From IMG/VR virus record IMGVR_UViG_2648501797_000006, positions 1 to 24,757 of that record: a stretch of DNA of 24,757 nucleotides; one strand, given 5' to 3'. Made by a program: the position numbers and the translations under genes. Source of the stretch: a virus (taxonomy: Duplodnaviria > Heunggongvirae > Uroviricota > Caudoviricetes). The notes under the pieces were generated by a model. The model searched no databases. It was not told where the DNA came from and saw nothing but the letters and a program-made list of their open reading frames with translations. Positions 1 through 23,389 of the stretch are shown here, one piece after another (positions within the stretch are counted from its first letter, which is position 1; every line of letters starts with the position of its first letter).

Positions 1-135
1 TCAAAACATGTAAAGCCTTGCAAGCCATTGCGAGGCCTTATGTGTCTCAGTTTTGTCCCACCTTGTATTACGACTTGCATAGCCAATGAAGATAAACGTG
101 ACGACAAACGGCGCAGCAGTCTTCTTTTCCTTCAT
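1..135 (-). CDS. Possible small hydrophobic protein (44 aa, MKEKKTAAPFVVTFIFIGYA...); speculative
   Basis: In-frame ATG at 133..135 (complement) preceded by GGGGA; stop at 1..3; one hydrophobic helix-length segment. Lies inside the longer 1..345 track ORF. No recognised family. Confidence 0.2.
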   Translation of the reverse strand: MKEKKTAAPFVVTFIFIGYASRNTRWDKTETHKASQWLARLYMF

Positions 136-295
136 ACTTTCCCCACCCAGCATGCATACCTTTATGCCATAACTGAAGTTTATGTCTGTTATGAGCGAGG
201 AGCGGAAGTCCGCAATTGTTCTTGCAACTAGGGCAGCTAAAAGACATGGCAGGCAAATGTCTACATGTAGGATACACCTGCTATCATAAAGAATC

Positions 296-1075
296 TTAGT
301 CCTGAAGCATTTTAACTTTCTTCTCATGCTTTTTATATTCGCCATTTATCCATTCAGGTTCTTCCCGAATAGCTGATCGCATACAGTGTGTTGGGATATC
401 ATTCCAGAAAGCTGTAATCGCATCTGCAAACTCTATAAACTGTGTTTCTGTAACCTCAAGTTGCTCATGACGTAGACTAAATCTATAGCCTCCTGGAATA
501 TTGATATCCTGATAATACTCAGGATGCGCGATGGAAAGCTCCCGATGGGCATGGCCATCACCGTGCTTATAAACATTGACTACTTGGCGACAGGCATCGA
601 TTTTTTCGTAATAAGCCTTGCCGGTGATATCCATCCCAACCCATTCTAGAATTTCAATTAGCCTTGGGAAGCCGATGTCCCAGATCATCGATGTTACGGG
701 TTTAGAGTCGAGCCAATGGCTGAATTCACGGATACACTTTTCTCGAAGTTCCTTATCGAACTGGTGAAACATTCCTGCTGTCAGAGCAAGTGAAACCGTA
801 TTTTTCATATCACTGAGGGCAATCCAATGTGAAATTCCTTCATCATGAGCCTGTTCCCAGATAGCCCCCTCGTCGTCATAATCGGGGTCAAAACGCTTAC
901 CGGCGGCCTCATAGTAATCTTTTTCTTTCTGCCGAGCTTCAGCTTCAAGATCAGAATCGCTAAACTGCGAAAATAAACGTTTTCTGGCTTCAGAAACATA
1001 AAAATTGTGTTTGTCGAGGAAGTAAGCCCGATCAATGGTTGCAAAATAAAAAAGTGAAAAATCTTTTTCGCTCAT
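296..1075 (-). CDS. Hypothetical protein, 259 aa, no family recognised (candidate prophage cargo)
   Basis: Track ORF 296..1153; likely start is the ATG at 1073..1075 (MSEKDFSLFYF...), preceded by AGGGAG. Stop TAA at 296..298. Contains HGDGHAHRELSIAH (an Rx5H spacing). Confidence 0.6.
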   Translation of the reverse strand: MSEKDFSLFYFATIDRAYFLDKHNFYVSEARKRLFSQFSDSDLEAEARQKEKDYYEAAGKRFDPDYDDEGAIWEQAHDEGISHWIALSDMKNTVSLALTAGMFHQFDKELREKCIREFSHWLDSKPVTSMIWDIGFPRLIEILEWVGMDITGKAYYEKIDACRQVVNVYKHGDGHAHRELSIAHPEYYQDINIPGGYRFSLRHEQLEVTETQFIEFADAITAFWNDIPTHCMRSAIREEPEWINGEYKKHEKKVKMLQD

Positions 1076-1451
1076 GGGGATCTCCCTCGTTTCGTCAGTT
1101 CTACAAGCCCTTGGAAGTAGGCTGCTAATAAAGAAAAGATTACATTTGAACAACTGTGCAAGATAGCAGTACGCCTAAAGGTAGTGCAAGTATCCCAACT
1201 AAGGTAACGATGCGTTTTCAAATATATAACTTAACGCTCGCGATATCCGCTTCTGGCACGAGGCGGACAGAACATGTGGACATGACGTCAGCTCTAAGCG
1301 AGGAGCTGATGCTAGCGGGGTAGGTTCAGTACAATCATAGGAGAGATCCAAAGTGTGCAGACACTGACTAAATTAAAGAAAATAGCATCTACGCTATATG
1401 GATATTAATAATGTCTATGACGAATATCATTATACGGGTAATGACTCCAAC

Positions 1452-1955
1452 TTATTGATAGTGTTTTATGTTCAGATAATGCCCGATGACTTTGTCATGC
1501 AGCTCCACCGATTTTGAAAACGACAGCGACTTCCGTCCCAGCCGTGCCAGGTGCTGCCTCAGATTCAGGTTATGCCGCTCAATTCGCTGCGTATATCGCT
1601 TGCTGATTACGTGCAGCTTTCCCTTCAGGCGGGATTCATACAGCGGCCAGCCATCCGTCATCCATATCACCACGTCAAAGGGTGACAGCAGGCTCATAAG
1701 ACGCCCCAGCGTCGCCATAGTGCGTTCACCGAATACGTGCGCAACAACCGTCTTCCGGAGCCTGTCATACGCGTAAAACAGCCAGCGCTGGCGCGATTTA
1801 GCCCCGACATAGCCCCACTGTTCGTCCATTTCCGCGCAGACGATGACGTCACTGCCCGGCTGTATGCGCGAGGTTACCGACTGCGGCCTGAGTTTTTTAA
1901 GTGACGTAAAATCGTGTTGAGGCCAACGCCCATAATGCGGGCTGTTGCCCGGCAT
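1452..1955 (-). CDS. insB: IS1 InsB frame (transposase made as an InsAB' fusion by -1 frameshifting)
   Basis: 167-aa frame overlapping the insA 3' end, sequence ...[27 protein letters not shown]... typical of IS1 InsB. Confidence 0.9.
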
Positions 1956-2149
1956 CCAACGCCATTCATGGCCATATCAATGATTTTCTGGTGCGTACCG
2001 GGTTGAGAAGCGGTGTAAGTGAACTGCAGTTGCCATGTTTTACGGCAGTGAGAGCAGAGATAGCGCTGATGTCCGGCGGTGCTTTTGCCGTTACGCACCA
2101 CCCCGTCAGTAGCTGAACAGGAGGGACAGCTGATAGAAACAGAAGCCAC
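1874..2149 (-). CDS. insA: IS1 InsA (91 aa)
   Basis: Translation [43 protein letters not shown]... matches IS1 InsA from memory. Confidence 0.9.
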
Positions 2150-2515
2150 TGGAGCACCTCAAAAAGACCATCATACACTAAATCAGTAAGTTGGCAGCAT
2201 CACCAATCAAACGATAGTTTGCAATGACAATATAAACGTTTTCAGTGAGTTAAGCAATACTAGGAAATTATGAGACAGATTACGTCGCCTCCACCATAAT
2301 GATTAACGAACCGTACTTTTTGCAAAGTCCGCATCTGGCACATAGCAGACCAGAGACACTGGCGTAAAGCCATGGAGGATCGGTGGGAGGAGGTAAAAAT
2401 CCTCTCATGCAAAAAATACGCAAAATCGATAACAGTTGGAAATCATTCAATACTCGCACTATCGGAAGTTCACCAGCCAGTCGTAGCACGTTCTTGCATA
2501 CGACGTGCTACGGTT

Positions 2516-2911
2516 TCATTTATCTCCGACCGGAAACCTCTTATACAAAGTCGATATGCCAATATCATAGATGATCGCCACCTTCTGGCGAGGAACTCCT
2601 GATGCAATTAATCGTCCGGCCTGTGCCCATTGTTCTGGTGTAAGTTTGGGACGTCGTCCACCAATTCGTCCCTGTGCGCGAGCAGCTTCCAGGCCAGCTT
2701 TTGTTCGTTCAACAATCAGTTCTCGTTCCATTTCAGCCAGGGCACCCATCACATGAAAGAAGAAGCGCCCCATAGGCGTACTCGTATCGATGCTATCCGT
2801 CAGGCTCCGGAAGTTAACACCTTTCTCCCGCAGTTCCTCCACTAACCCAACAAGATGTCGCATGCTGCGACCGAGGCGGTCACGCTTTCAGACCACCAGC
2901 GTATCGCCTTC
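2516..2911 (-). pseudogene. Pin/Hin/Gin-family serine DNA invertase remnant: N-terminally truncated with an in-frame nonsense codon
   Basis: Track ORF 2516..2863 gives ...RSLTDSIDTSTPMGRFFFHVMGALAEMERELIVERTKAGLEAARAQGRIGGRRPKLTPEQWAQAGRL..., an invertase C-terminal two-thirds. Reading upstream in frame gives EGDTLVV-stop-KRDRLGRSM: TGA at 2888..2890 (complement) replaces the conserved Trp of GDTLVVWKLDRLGRS. Similarity ends near 2911, so the catalytic-serine N-terminus is absent. Confidence 0.8.
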
Positions 2912-3026
2912 AGATATGCATCCTTGCTAAACTTAGATCGCCGGTCACCAACTAAGCATGCAGTATGCGTTATGTTTTTTATTGCTCCCAGGGTAATGTG
3001 TCCACTAACTAAACAAGGAGATAGTG

Positions 3027-3578
3027 ATGCTGCATACTATGAATTTCACGGTGCCCGTAAATCAGTCCACCGTTAACGCTTTAATTAGCAATTGCCTTGG
3101 AGCTATCAATCAGGGGGCGACTGAGTTAAACATTTACATTTCCAGTCCGGGCGGTGACCTCGTTGCAGGTTTTACTGCTTATCACTTTCTAAAGGCCCTA
3201 CCAATCCCAGTAAAGACCCATAACCTTAGCAATGTTGAATCAGTCGCTAATATCATTTTTCTTGCAGGGTCTGAACGTAAGGCGAATCCTGGGAGTCGGT
3301 TCTTACTGCATCCTTTTCACTGGGGCTTGATGGGCCCAAGCGTGGATCACTCACGCGTCAGTGAGTGGAGCGCGTGTCTCAATAATGACCTGGAGCGTTT
3401 TGTCGATATTTTGGAGAGTCAGATTGAGCTCAGTAAGAGCCGCAATGAGTGGAAGGAGGTTATCTCCGCCGCCACCATAGCCAATGCCTCTACAGCTCTG
3501 GATTGGGGGATGGTTCACGAGGTTGCCGCCGCCACTTACCCGCAGGCACCCGGCACATACTGGTGGATTAACTGTTAA
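3027..3578 (+). CDS. ClpP-fold (peptidase S14-like) serine peptidase-like protein, 183 aa
   Basis: AAGGAG at 3015..3020, 6 nt before ATG 3027. ...ELNIYISSPGGDLVAGFTAYHFL...SNVESVANIIFLAGSERKANPGSRFLLHPFHWG parallels ClpP ...YINSPGGVITAGMSIYDTM...GQAASMGAFLL...RVMIHQPLGG, with Ser and His at the corresponding positions. Assignment from recalled motifs only. Confidence 0.55.
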   Translation: MLHTMNFTVPVNQSTVNALISNCLGAINQGATELNIYISSPGGDLVAGFTAYHFLKALPIPVKTHNLSNVESVANIIFLAGSERKANPGSRFLLHPFHWGLMGPSVDHSRVSEWSACLNNDLERFVDILESQIELSKSRNEWKEVISAATIANASTALDWGMVHEVAAATYPQAPGTYWWINC

Positions 3579-4148: not shown

Positions 4149-4624
4149 TATGCAAACTCCTCGATAATACAAATCCCAGCAGCACCTTTCCCGCCTGTCA
4201 TACTGGTTCCGCTATAACCGGCATCGTATGCGCCACCGCCACCTGAACCATATACCTTACCACTAACACCACCGCCAGCGCCTGCGCGTCCACCGCCCCC
4301 CCAGTACGATGTTCCGCCTTCACCGCTGACGCCGATATTTCCGGACTGACCGTCGCCTCCATTTCCACCAATGATGTTGATACCGCCAGTACTTGGCACA
4401 CCGCCGTTATCGTCTTCGGTCAGCTCGCTGATGACCGAAAAATCGAACTGATAAATCAGCTCATGACGATTCAGATCCAGCAGCGTGCCGCCGTCATAAG
4501 TAATCGGGTTACCGCACGCTTCCGGGTTCCAGCCCAGAATGGCCTTAAAGAGCATCTGCCGGATATCGTCCACCACATCATACGAGGCAAACTGACCGCG
4601 CTCATCACGCCCGTTCCAGCTCTT
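4148..4624 (-). pseudogene. Tail fibre C-terminal (receptor-binding, Gly-rich) fragment lacking its N-terminal portion
   Basis: Frame is open from 4624 to stop 4148..4150 with only an alternative GTG at 4576; the Gly-rich C-terminus is directly followed by tfa. Upstream is the terminase gene, not the rest of a fibre gene. Confidence 0.6.
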
Positions 4625-6104
4625 TCATCGGGTCGGACATGTTGGTGTAGTTCTGAATGATGGTGATGGGATTCAGGTCTTCATCAGCAAGGTCATGTGA
4701 CAGCCCGGTCGCCCCGAAGGGGTCGATGGGTGACTCGCTGACCGGGCTGATTTTGTTCGCTGCTTTGGCCTCTTCGAGGATGTAGCGATAATCCACCTCT
4801 GCACCATCGGTAACGGTCAGGACGCCCATTTCCACCCATTTCTGAAAGCGTTCGGCTGTCCGGCGATCTTCATTTTTCTCGACGCTGTACACCGTGTCAT
4901 ACGGTACCCAGAAACGCGGGGCCACACTGTAGTAATGCGTTTTACCGTCAATCTCGCGGGTATAAAGTCGCGCCATGCTGTTCATATCCAGCTTACGCGC
5001 CAGGTCAAAGGCCAGAATGCACGGCTGCCCCTCGAACTGCTCAAGGGTCAGTGATTTATCCTCGCAGCTCTGCCAGCTCACCAGGTTGAAATACGCCGAA
5101 CGCGCCGACACCCAGATATTGAGGTGTTTTGTTTTAAAGACGTTTGCCAGACGGGCGTTATTTTTCGCACGCTGCTGCTGACTTAACAAAAATTCGCGAT
5201 AAACCGACACGCCAATATTTGGATTGGCTTTTTCCAGCACCTGCGGGTCGGTCCAGTCGTCACCTTCATCAACGGTATAGATGATCCCGAACAGTTCATC
5301 GTTGGGCACCGAGCCGTTGAGCATCTCGATGACTTCCCGCCGCTTGTCGTAGCACGGCCCCTCAATGTTGTACCCGGCAGTAGTAATGGCCCACATCAGT
5401 GGCTGACGTCGCGCCCCCATCCCGGTAAGCATCGTGGTGTAAAGCGCATCGGTGGCGTGCTCGTGATATTCATCCACCACCGCACAGTGGGGTGATGATC
5501 CATCACCGGGGTTACCGATCAGCGGTTCAAACCGCGCGCCATCCTCCGGACGGTTCATGTTTGAGGCGTTAACCTCAATCCCGAACGCTTCCGTCAGCAT
5601 GGGCGTGCGTTTACACATCAGTCGCGCCGGGCGAAAGACTTCCCACGCCTGTTTCTCTGTCGTGGCACCGGAATACACTTCCGCGCCAAACTCGTTATCA
5701 CAGGCAAAACAATACAGGGCGACACCGGCAGAGATTGCCGATTTGCCGTTCTTACGGGGGATTTCGGTATACACCTCCCGGAAGCGGCGCAGCCGGGAGC
5801 CTTTATTGACCCAGCCAAACGCACAGCAGATCACAAAGAGCTGCCACGGCTCCAGCGTGATGGGCATCCTCTTGAATGCCCACTCACCCTTGGTGTGCGG
5901 CAACAGCTGAATAAATTTGGCGGCTCGTTCAGCCAGGTCCTTGTCGAAGCGGTAACGAAACGACTTACTTTTTTCCGCCATCAGGTCATCAAGATGGCGC
6001 TGGCAGGCCTGAATCACAAACTGGCAGGCCACAATCTTTCCGCGAAAGACATCCCGGGCATACTGATTGGCAGCATTTACGTTGGGGTAAGATTTCCGGC
6101 TCAT
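4605..6104 (-). CDS. Terminase large subunit (Terminase_1-like, 499 aa)
   Basis: 499-aa frame; its ATG overlaps the TerS stop as ATGA (6101..6104). Placed after HNH and TerS as in HK97-type packaging modules. Confidence 0.85.
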
Positions 6105-6595
6105 GATTCGATGATTTTCAGAAACGGGTTAGTAGCTTTCTTCTGCCCCGCCAGGCCAATCAGACGCTGGCGGCTGCTGGGGTCGAGTCCGAGCATTGCC
6201 CCCGTGCTGCTCATCTCGGACTCCTGTTCTTTTTTGGCGGTCAGCTCAGGATTTTTGACCATACCGCCCATTGCACCGGTGATGGTGTTGCCCTGTCTGG
6301 CAATATTTTTCACGGCACGTCGCCAGAACTCATAGGCCACACACCACCGCTCAAGCACCGCGAGGTCAGTCACGCACAGCAGGCCCTGACCGCAAAGTTC
6401 TTTAGTTGTCAATTGCCACATGATCGTGGCGAGAGGGAGATCTTCTTCAGCGAACCACTCCGGTGGCTCAACACCTTTGATGGGCGTAAAAACAGGTTCA
6501 TCTTTATTCAGGGCTCGCTTGCCGGGGTTTCCGGCCAGCGCCTTGCGCGCCGTTGGCTTGGGGCGACGCCCGGAACGCCCCGCCGTTCCAGCCAT
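6101..6595 (-). CDS. Terminase small subunit (P27-like)
   Basis: Basic N-terminus [27 protein letters not shown]...; ATG at complement 6593..6595 with GGAG 8 nt upstream (the track used an upstream GTG). Directly upstream of TerL. Confidence 0.7.
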
Positions 6596-6720
6596 ATGCG
6601 GCACTCCTGGTTAAATTTCATTTTTCGCGGGTATAAAAAAACGATGGGGCGGGCAGTCCTGAAGACGTCAGGGTACAGAGATTTGACCCGCCCCTCCCCT
6701 CTGGCAGTGGGAACTGGTTC

Positions 6721-7071
6721 TTACTTCAGCCGTTCACGGGCCGTCTTCGCCTTATGACACGGCCAGCACAAACTCTGCAGATTACTGTCGACATCAGTGC
6801 CGCCATGCGATTTAGGGATGATGTGGTCAACGGTCTTCGCCTCACGCACCACACCAGCACGCAGACATAACTGACACAGGCCTTTGTCACGCTTCAGGAC
6901 ACGCGCGCGGATACTTTCCCACTTCGAACCGTAGCCGCGCTGATGACGGGATTGTCCAGGTTTGTATTGCTTCCAGCCTTCGCTTTTGTGGCTTTCGCAG
7001 TAGCCTGAAGGGTCCGTGGTTGTAGAGCGGCAGCCGCGAACACGGCAGGCTTTTGGGGTTCGTGGGGGCAT
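6721..7071 (-). CDS. HNH endonuclease (packaging-associated)
   Basis: Cys/His pattern C..C...HIIPKSHGGTDVDSNLQSLCWPCH typical of phage HNH proteins next to terminase genes; GGAG 6 nt before the ATG. Confidence 0.8.
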   Translation of the reverse strand: MPPRTPKACRVRGCRSTTTDPSGYCESHKSEGWKQYKPGQSRHQRGYGSKWESIRARVLKRDKGLCQLCLRAGVVREAKTVDHIIPKSHGGTDVDSNLQSLCWPCHKAKTARERLK

Positions 7072-7920: not shown

Positions 7921-8382
7921 CTATCTGCACTGCTCATTAATATACTTCTGGGTTCCTTCCAGTTGTTTTTGCATAGTGATCAGCCTCTCTCTGAGAGTGA
8001 AATAATCCCGTTCAGCGGTGTCTGCCAGTCGGGGGGAGGCTGCATTATCCATGCCGGAGGCGGTGGTGGCTTCACGCACTGACTGACAGACTGCTTTGAT
8101 GTGCAACCGACGACGACCAGCGGCGACATCATCACGCAGAGCATCATTTTCAGCTTTCGCATCAGCTAACTCCTTCGTGTATTTTGCATCGAGCGCAGCA
8201 ACATCACGTTGGCGCACCTGCATGTCAGTAATTGTCGAGTTCGCCAGCTTCAGTTCTCTGGCATTTTTGTCGCGCTGGGCTTTGTAGGTAATGGCGTTAT
8301 CACGGTAATGATTAACCGCCCATGACAGACAGACGATGATGCAGATAACCAGAGCGGAGATAATCGCGGTTAATCTGTTCAT
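7921..8382 (-). CDS. Rz: Rz i-spanin
   Basis: [48 protein letters not shown]... near-identical to lambda Rz; start overlaps the R stop as ATGA. Confidence 0.95.
7980..8162 (-). CDS. Rz1: Rz1 o-spanin, nested in the +1 frame of Rz
   Basis: [55 protein letters not shown]... matches lambda Rz1 with lipobox and Pro-rich tract. Confidence 0.9.
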
Positions 8383-8855
8383 ACCTCAATCTCTCTGACC
8401 GTTCCGCCCGCTTCTTTGAATTTTGCAATCAGGCTGTCAGCCTTATGCTCGAACTGACCATAACCAGCGCCCGGCAGTGAAGCCCAGATATTGCTGCAAC
8501 GGTCGATTGCCTGACGAATATTGCCGCGGTCAATCATCGGTAAAGCGCCACGCTCTTTAATCTGCTGCAGAGCTACAGCGTCCTGGCTTTCTGGAGAAAA
8601 ATCTTTCAGGCCAAGCTGTTTACGGTAAGCATCCCACCAGCGTGAAAGAAGCTGGTAACGTCCGGCGGCTGTTGATTTGAGTTTGGGGTTTAGCGTGACA
8701 AGTTTGCGAGGGTGATCGGAGTAATCAGTGAACAGTTCACCACCAACAATAACATCATAACCGTGGTTACGTGTCGGTTGTCGCCCGTTATCCGTTCCTT
8801 CTGACCAGGCCACCATATCAAGGAAAGCTTTACGCTGAGGATTTAGTTCCTGCAT
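8379..8855 (-). CDS. R: Endolysin R (lambda R-type lytic transglycosylase)
   Basis: ...[77 protein letters not shown]... near-identical to lambda R. Confidence 0.95.
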
Positions 8856-19762: not shown

Positions 19763-20587
19763 ATGTCTCAGAACTTAGACGCAACCGCAATTAATCAAAT
19801 CCATGCCCTTATTTCTGCTCAGGGTGTTAATGAAATTATCAGTAAGATTGGTGCCGATGCTGTGGCATTGCCTGAGAATTTCCGCATTCATGATCTGGAA
19901 AAATTTAATTTAAATCGCTTCCGTTTCCGTGGTGCGCTTTCCACTGCCAGCATCGATGACTTTACCCGTTATTCTAAAGATCTTGCAGATGAAGGCACCC
20001 GCTGCTTTATCGATGCTGATAATATGCGTGCCGTCAGTGTGCTTAACCTGGGTACTATTGATGAACCAGGTCACGCAGATAACACCGCCACTCTCAAACT
20101 GAAAAAGACAGCACCGTTCTCTGCTCTGTTGTCTGTTAATGGCGAGCGTAACTCCCAGAAATCACTGGCAGAATGGATTGAAGACTGGGCCGACTACCTT
20201 GTGGGCTTTGATGCTAATGGTGACACCATTCAGGCAACAAAAGCGGCTGCGGCGGTCCGTAAAATCACGATTGAAGCAAACCAGACCGCTGATTTTGAAG
20301 ATAATGACTTCAGCGGCAAACGCTCCCTGATGGAGTCTGTCGAAGCGAAGACCAAAGACATTATGCCAGTGGCATTTGAATTTAAATGCATTCCGTTTGA
20401 AGGTCTGAAAGAACGTCCGTTTAAATTACGCCTCAGCATTATCACTGGCGATCGTCCGGTACTGGTTCTGCGCATTATTCAGCTGGAGGCGGTGCAGGAA
20501 GAAATGGCTAACGAATTTCGTGATCTGCTTGTTGATAAATTCAAGGACAGCAAAGTAGAAACCTTTATTGGTACTTTCACCGCCTGA
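19763..20587 (+). CDS. yfdQ: YfdQ-like protein (DUF2303 family, 274 aa)
   Basis: 274-aa ORF with a good RBS (gtgaggactt before ATG); length and neighbourhood match the CPS-53 yfdPQRST module as recalled. Confidence 0.7.
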
Positions 20588-23299: not shown

Positions 23300-23313
23300 C
23301 TTATTGATTTAAA

Positions 23314-23389
23314 TGGTGCCGATAATAGGAGTCGAACCTACGACCTTCGCATTACGAATGCGCTGCTCTACCAACTGAGCTATATCGGC
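23314..23389 (-). tRNA. thrW: tRNA-Thr (anticodon CGU), 76 nt with encoded CCA
   Basis: Reverse complement reads GCCGATATAGCTCAGTTGGTAGAGCAGCGCATTCGTAATGCGAAGGTCGTAGGTTCGACTCCTATTATCGGCACCA: D-loop AGCTCAGTTGGTAGAGC, anticodon loop TTCGTAA, T-arm GGTTCGACTCC. Confidence 0.9.

Follow-up and report, generated by a model that had tools for sequence, protein, structure and literature searches.

Adjacent deletions promoted by IS1 are reportedly first described by Reif and Saedler in the 1970s, from the gal region of Escherichia coli. In these classical cases an intact element is kept, the deletion starts exactly at a tip of the IS and extends into the adjoining DNA, and no target-site duplication is present, all of which also holds for the locus described here; the classical deletions, however, were observed as events, whereas ours is reconstructed from natural alleles. 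Members of the IS1 family measure about 768 bp, end in imperfect terminal inverted repeats of roughly 23-30 bp and normally generate a target-site duplication of 8 or 9 bp (PMC12428005). Where insertion sequences in E. coli lack such a duplication, the usual explanations are adjacent deletion or recombination between two IS copies, and adjacent deletions by insertion sequences in general have been reviewed (PMC11708052).

A second well-described class consists of the 'IS-del' events of IS150 in the Lenski lines, in which an insertion is followed by an adjacent deletion of 14 bp to 49 kb, leaving the element between non-duplicated flanks with the neighboring DNA lost, as in the present case (PMC11708052). 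IS150 belongs to a different family from IS1 (IS3, with copy-out-paste-in transposition), and its intermediates were proved by time-series samples (PMC11708052). A third point of comparison is the IS1A copy of E. coli K-12 MG1655 (19796-20563), which has the same length of 768 bp and the same organization as the element studied here, is identical to it at 765 of 768 positions without indels, and likewise has no duplication, being flanked by GTAATTGCT and TACCTCAAT. The two copies differ in their genomic site and in three bases, at element positions 82, 325 and 730 in the orientation used below.

Here we examine an IS1 copy near the left end of a 24,757-nucleotide stretch of caudoviricete DNA (IMG/VR record IMGVR_UViG_2648501797_000006) that belongs to an E. 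coli prophage; we call the whole stretch the window. Comparison with related alleles shows that this IS1 fills a gap of 972 bp: it has no duplication, most of a gene for a 306-aa protein has been lost, and a 32-bp 3' stump of that gene is left (probability about 0.97). The route by which this arrangement arose is considered separately, as is a truncated invertase gene nearby that had been linked to the same event.

A complete IS1 element between unmatched flanks

The element occupies positions 1437-2204, from GGTAATGACTCC at 1437 to GGCAGCATCACC at 2204, with its genes on the minus strand; our reading of the sequence agrees with the coordinates and both flanking 9-mers given in an earlier note on this DNA. 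Its length and imperfect terminal repeats, its insA and insB' frames joined by an A6C motif and its near-identity to IS1A place it in the IS1 family, and RefSeq labels an identical copy 'IS1-like element IS1A family transposase, programmed frameshift'. The right-hand inverted repeat (IRR-type end, GGTAATGACTCCAACTTATTGAT, 1437-1459) adjoins the left flank and the left-hand inverted repeat (IRL-type end, reverse complement GGTGATGCTGCCAACTTACTGAT, 2182-2204) adjoins the right flank; read inward from the two ends, as GGTAATGACTCC and GGTGATGCTGCC, they are alike at 18 of 23 positions. The 91-aa insA reading frame (1874-2149, minus strand) matches Pfam Zn_ribbon_InsA and HTH_Tnp_IS1, and the insB' frame (1452-1955, minus strand) carries the DDE domain (DDE_Tnp_IS1, E = 2e-78). 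A simulated -1 frameshift fuses the two into a 232-aa InsAB' protein, the AAAAAAC slippery site for programmed frameshifting lying at 1892-1898 on the minus strand (element position 307 in canonical orientation). By these features the element, the sole IS1 in the window, is a complete and potentially active copy of IS1A type.

The 9-mers that border the element, CATTATACG on the left (1428-1436) and AATCAAACG on the right (2205-2213), differ from one another, as the earlier note had pointed out, and the direct duplication of 8 or 9 bp, which marks a simple insertion rather than the element as such, is absent here. The two are identical at six of nine positions and share a terminal ACG, a degree of matching (six or more of nine) expected by chance with a probability of about 0.011, whether calculated from local base composition or over all pairs of 9-mers from the two flanks. 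Such a match is what a simple insertion might leave behind if its duplication had since decayed, a reading that predicts contiguous flanks in alleles without the element. A separate feature of the right flank is a SNP at position 2220, 16 bp from the IS1 end and private to the window: T replaces the C found in every other IS1-bearing allele and in most of the IS1-free ones (ATAGTTTGC vs ATAGTTCGC).

IS1-free alleles hold 972 bp between the two flanks

When complete E. coli genomes were searched by megablast with this region, six proved to have the identical IS1 allele and one without IS1, CFE299 (NZ_OZ465017.1). More loci were obtained through exact look-ups of the 259-aa protein encoded by the leftmost gene of the window and of two variants of the 306-aa protein, and one additional IS1-free locus came from a viral collection, for a set of 23 IS1-free alleles of the same prophage end. 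In every one of the 23, CATTATACG runs directly into CAGCCTCGG and AATCAAACG is directly preceded by TTAATGCTA, the two 9-mers enclosing an interval of 972 bp that begins with CAGCC and ends with GCTA. In pairwise BLAST comparison with one such locus (L001), window positions 1-1436 correspond to 5565-7000 at 100% identity and 2205-2667 to 7973-8434, with the 972 bp between the two segments. Homology between the window and the IS1-free alleles stops exactly at both tips of the element, whose two flanks are non-contiguous in all 23 loci. Among right flanks without IS1, the nearest to that of the window has 99.0% identity across 312 bp, and the exact progenitor, combining the 306-aa gene with the truncated invertase and ClpP-like genes described below, was absent from the loci sampled.

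These alleles decide against a decayed duplication, which we regard as exceedingly improbable in spite of the partial match between the 9-mers: each 9-mer occurs once, in its own native context, 972 bp from the other in 23 of 23 IS1-free alleles, where a simple insertion would have left them adjoining. The earlier note had proposed comparison with IS1-free alleles and named an empty site indicative of simple insertion as the outcome that would overturn its view; none of the 23 empty-site alleles is of that kind, and its core inference, that the missing duplication reflects an associated deletion, is borne out by the 972 bp missing between native flanks.

The 23 loci span four different right-hand contexts before the Pin-type invertase, containing a LEM-3 GIY-YIG gene, a DUF4145 gene, an acyltransferase gene or nothing. 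Because the 972 bp are kept in all four, the interval is stable and ancestral rather than peculiar to a single strain. The left junction of the window is common to seven other IS1-bearing loci (L002, L004 and L007-L011), and the right junction to all six of these that extend across IS1. As all IS1-bearing alleles have the same two junctions, they trace to one ancestral event that has since spread. The seventh, a draft assembly (L011, GCA_949281775.1), has the left junction followed by 84 bp of IS1 (4556-4639) and then tandem REP/BIME-like repeats and allG, an arrangement that is most likely an assembly join across IS1 and otherwise a further IS1-associated rearrangement.

The deleted gene and its conserved partner

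Of the 972 bp, 83 bp lie upstream of the 306-aa reading frame (WP_097452624.1; minus strand, L001 6969-7889), and the rest covers its codons 1-296 together with one base, the first, of codon 297. What the window retains of this gene is a 32-bp remnant at 1405-1436 (minus strand), equivalent to L001 6969-7000, in which the remainder of codon 297 (two bases) is followed by the final nine codons and the stop. The retention of this stump identifies the change as a deletion, and as none of the loci read is devoid of IS1 and the 972 bp alike, the interval is taken to be ancestral. It is formally conceivable that the 972 bp were instead inserted into the IS1-free alleles, and that IS1 entered a short ancestral allele from which nothing was deleted. 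We give this next to no credence, since it would leave the in-frame 3' end of the 306-aa gene in the window and the missing short allele unaccounted for, and since a duplication around IS1 would still be expected.

The 306-aa gene is one half of a conserved two-gene module found at the attL end of thrW prophages. In the loci read the two genes always point the same way, the 306-aa gene coming first and a spacer of 329 bp separating it from the 259-aa gene. The window keeps this downstream partner, its leftmost gene (296-1075, minus strand; WP_025269809.1), together with the intact 329-bp spacer (1076-1404). The suggestion in the earlier note that the leftmost gene had been cut off from its context thus holds in a loose sense, in that the 306-aa gene always found directly upstream of it has been deleted.

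Pfam and PADLOC searches returned no match for either protein. Only the 259-aa protein could be placed in PHROGs, in a family of unknown function (PHROG 19541); it has about 90 homolog clusters across the Proteobacteria, and its AlphaFold model is all-helical with a pLDDT of 92, with no PDB match at E < 0.5 in a fold search. The 306-aa family comprises just eight clusters, from E. coli, Klebsiella, Enterobacter, Proteus and Rahnella, and the model of this protein (pLDDT 63) was too poor for a fold search. The 306-aa protein has two moderately hydrophobic stretches of 19 residues. The gene pair may be an uncharacterized accessory module of thrW prophages, possibly for defense or exclusion, in which the 306-aa protein, with its two moderately hydrophobic helices, would be the effector; the IS1 allele would then have spread because loss of this one gene was advantageous. 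We consider this improbable, along with a more modest alternative, in which the locus would simply represent a natural one-step, duplication-free IS1 insertion-deletion.

Routes to a single IS1 without duplication

The end product is identical whether the 972 bp were lost by adjacent deletion, by recombination of one IS1 copy with another or in a single step together with the insertion. We favor, at somewhat better than even odds, a two-step adjacent deletion carried out by the IS1 transposase. In the first step, an ordinary IS1 insertion at one junction or the other would have made a 9-bp duplication. AT-rich targets are preferred by IS1, and the right junction falls in the 200 bp with the highest AT content of the region (GC 0.30-0.32), which makes the AT-rich spacer that precedes the 306-aa gene, at AATCAAACG, a slightly likelier primary site. 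In the second step, intramolecular transposition by InsAB' would have joined one IS1 end to a target 972 bp away on the same molecule, discarding the intervening DNA along with the inner copy of the duplication. The product would be one intact IS1 between unrelated 9-mers, with the 306-aa gene lost and the 259-aa gene retained behind its own upstream spacer.

Three kinds of search were made for intermediates of such a pathway. Exact patterns for the junctions of an IS1 with a duplication, at the right or the left site, gave no hits in viral, metagenome and species-representative genome collections; none of the 48 contigs read has IS1 beside an intact 306-aa gene; and the truncated proteins of 300 and 307 aa that a left-site intermediate would encode were absent, by exact look-up, from a collection of 15 billion proteins. 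Within this limited sampling we found neither a progenitor with IS1 and a duplication at one junction nor nested deletions extending from a fixed IS1 end. As no intermediate was found, we infer the sequence of steps and any part played by the transposase from the end product, which three routes share. Of the claim in the earlier note that IS1 probably mediated an adjacent deletion or rearrangement, then, the deletion at the IS1 tips is borne out by the IS1-free alleles, and mediation by the transposase remains the favored interpretation.

The same product would result if two IS1 copies in the same orientation had inserted at CATTATACG and AATCAAACG, each with its own duplication, and RecA-dependent recombination had then removed the interval and one of the elements, leaving a single IS1 between the two outer duplication copies. 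Each host genome matches IS1 in more than 30 places (34-40 per record), so that IS1 insertions are evidently frequent, and recombination of this kind is a common cause of missing duplications (PMC11708052). It demands three events, however, including two same-orientation insertions within 1 kb, and neither a singly nor a doubly inserted allele emerged from the junction patterns, the 48 contigs or the truncated-protein look-ups, so that we hold this course of events to be unlikely.

That no collection searched contained an intermediate also fits a one-step process, in which the two IS1 ends became attached to sites separated by 972 bp, or IS1 entered a gap or break that was already there, so that neither a duplication nor a simple-insertion intermediate ever arose. 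Ngan et al. 2024 propose events of this kind for IS5 and IS481 (PMC11708052), although the same source describes none for IS1, and in the long-term evolution lines, inspection showed each of the 14 events that combined an IS with a deletion to be a two-step adjacent deletion (PMC11708052). Under sparse sampling, moreover, missing intermediates are weak evidence, and a one-step origin seems to us quite unlikely. Two-step adjacent deletion accordingly remains the route that we prefer.

Other IS1 copies at similar prophage ends

IS1 copies lying near Pin in other genomes were considered as possible nested deletions from the same junction. Two of them, IS1A copies in similar prophage ends (L033 and L034), proved to be independent simple insertions elsewhere, with perfect 9-bp duplications CAAGGGGTC and CTGAACATG, which makes the missing duplication at 1437-2204 meaningful. 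A third (L035 4003-4770, NZ_CP128926.1) is an IS1A copy without duplication at the end of an e14-like prophage; it too was rejected as a nested deletion, since it sits at an unrelated site, between ycgH and mcrA. Taken with the K-12 IS1A (L037 197-964), which also has no duplication, this copy indicates that IS1 elements without target-site duplications are commonplace.

The truncated invertase and the prophage context

To the right of IS1 lies a Pin-type serine invertase pseudogene whose 5' end is missing (2516-2917, minus strand; Pfam Resolvase positions 79-144 plus HTH_7), for which RefSeq remarks 'missing N-terminus, internal stop'. The earlier note had guessed that the IS1 event removed this 5' end, which is wrong. 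The truncation point, at about 2917, is some 710 bp from IS1, and the lost 5' part would have its place farther right still; window positions 2205-2916 are colinear with an IS1-free allele (L005). The same 402-bp truncated recombinase, joined to an identical ClpP-like protein (WP_016244976.1), is found in TUM14664 and PSS-04, which have no IS1 at this position. Since the truncation is unchanged in genomes without IS1 here, it is unrelated to the IS1 event, which we reject as its cause; it is an independent and probably older recombination junction.

The gene that follows the truncated invertase (3027-3578, plus strand) encodes this 183-aa ClpP/head-maturation-protease-like protein. It stands among fragments of tail-fiber assembly genes, an odd location for a protease, and many E. 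coli prophages have the same junction. A variable cargo slot (window 2205-3030; also in L003, L005, L006, L015, L030 and L031) separates the gene pair from Pin and is filled, depending on the strain, by a LEM-3-like GIY-YIG nuclease, a DUF4145 protein, an acyltransferase or nothing. In other prophages homology stops at about window position 2322, 2411 or 2482, and these varying end points indicate mosaic recombination.

The prophage is integrated at a tRNA-Thr(CGU) gene (23314-23389) next to proA, which lies at its right end (region 23309-23389). In strain 123636 a 52-bp copy of the tRNA end, 98% identical, lies just left of the point where the window starts (L002 11448-11499); the two are probably the attR and attL core repeats. 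The position of this repeat makes the gene pair the last cargo next to attL. Directly beyond attL, strain 123636 carries a P4-like island with its own integrase. Compared with the prophage of this strain (NZ_CP158323), which is otherwise near-identical, tail and baseplate genes (about 10.1 kb) and head genes (about 5.2 kb) are missing from the window. At 4405-4620 it has only a 208-bp piece of a tail-terminator gene (4408-4615) between a truncated glycine-rich tail-fiber gene and the gene for the terminase large subunit. The junctions there have overlaps of 2 and 5 bp only and no IS, and none of the complete E. coli genomes in RefSeq spans the arrangement.

Biological implications

The event at 1437-2204 belongs to an ordinary, textbook class of IS1-associated deletions, and the IS1 allele itself is already known from at least six complete RefSeq genomes, in which IS1 and its neighbor genes are annotated and the deletion is not flagged. 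Beyond correct annotation the finding therefore matters little: it accounts for an IS1 without a duplication, names the gene that was lost and separates the IS1 event from the truncation of the invertase. With the same junctions in all IS1-bearing copies, the allele could serve as a lineage marker. If the gene pair has a function, such as phage exclusion, strains with the IS1 allele would be natural single-gene knockouts.
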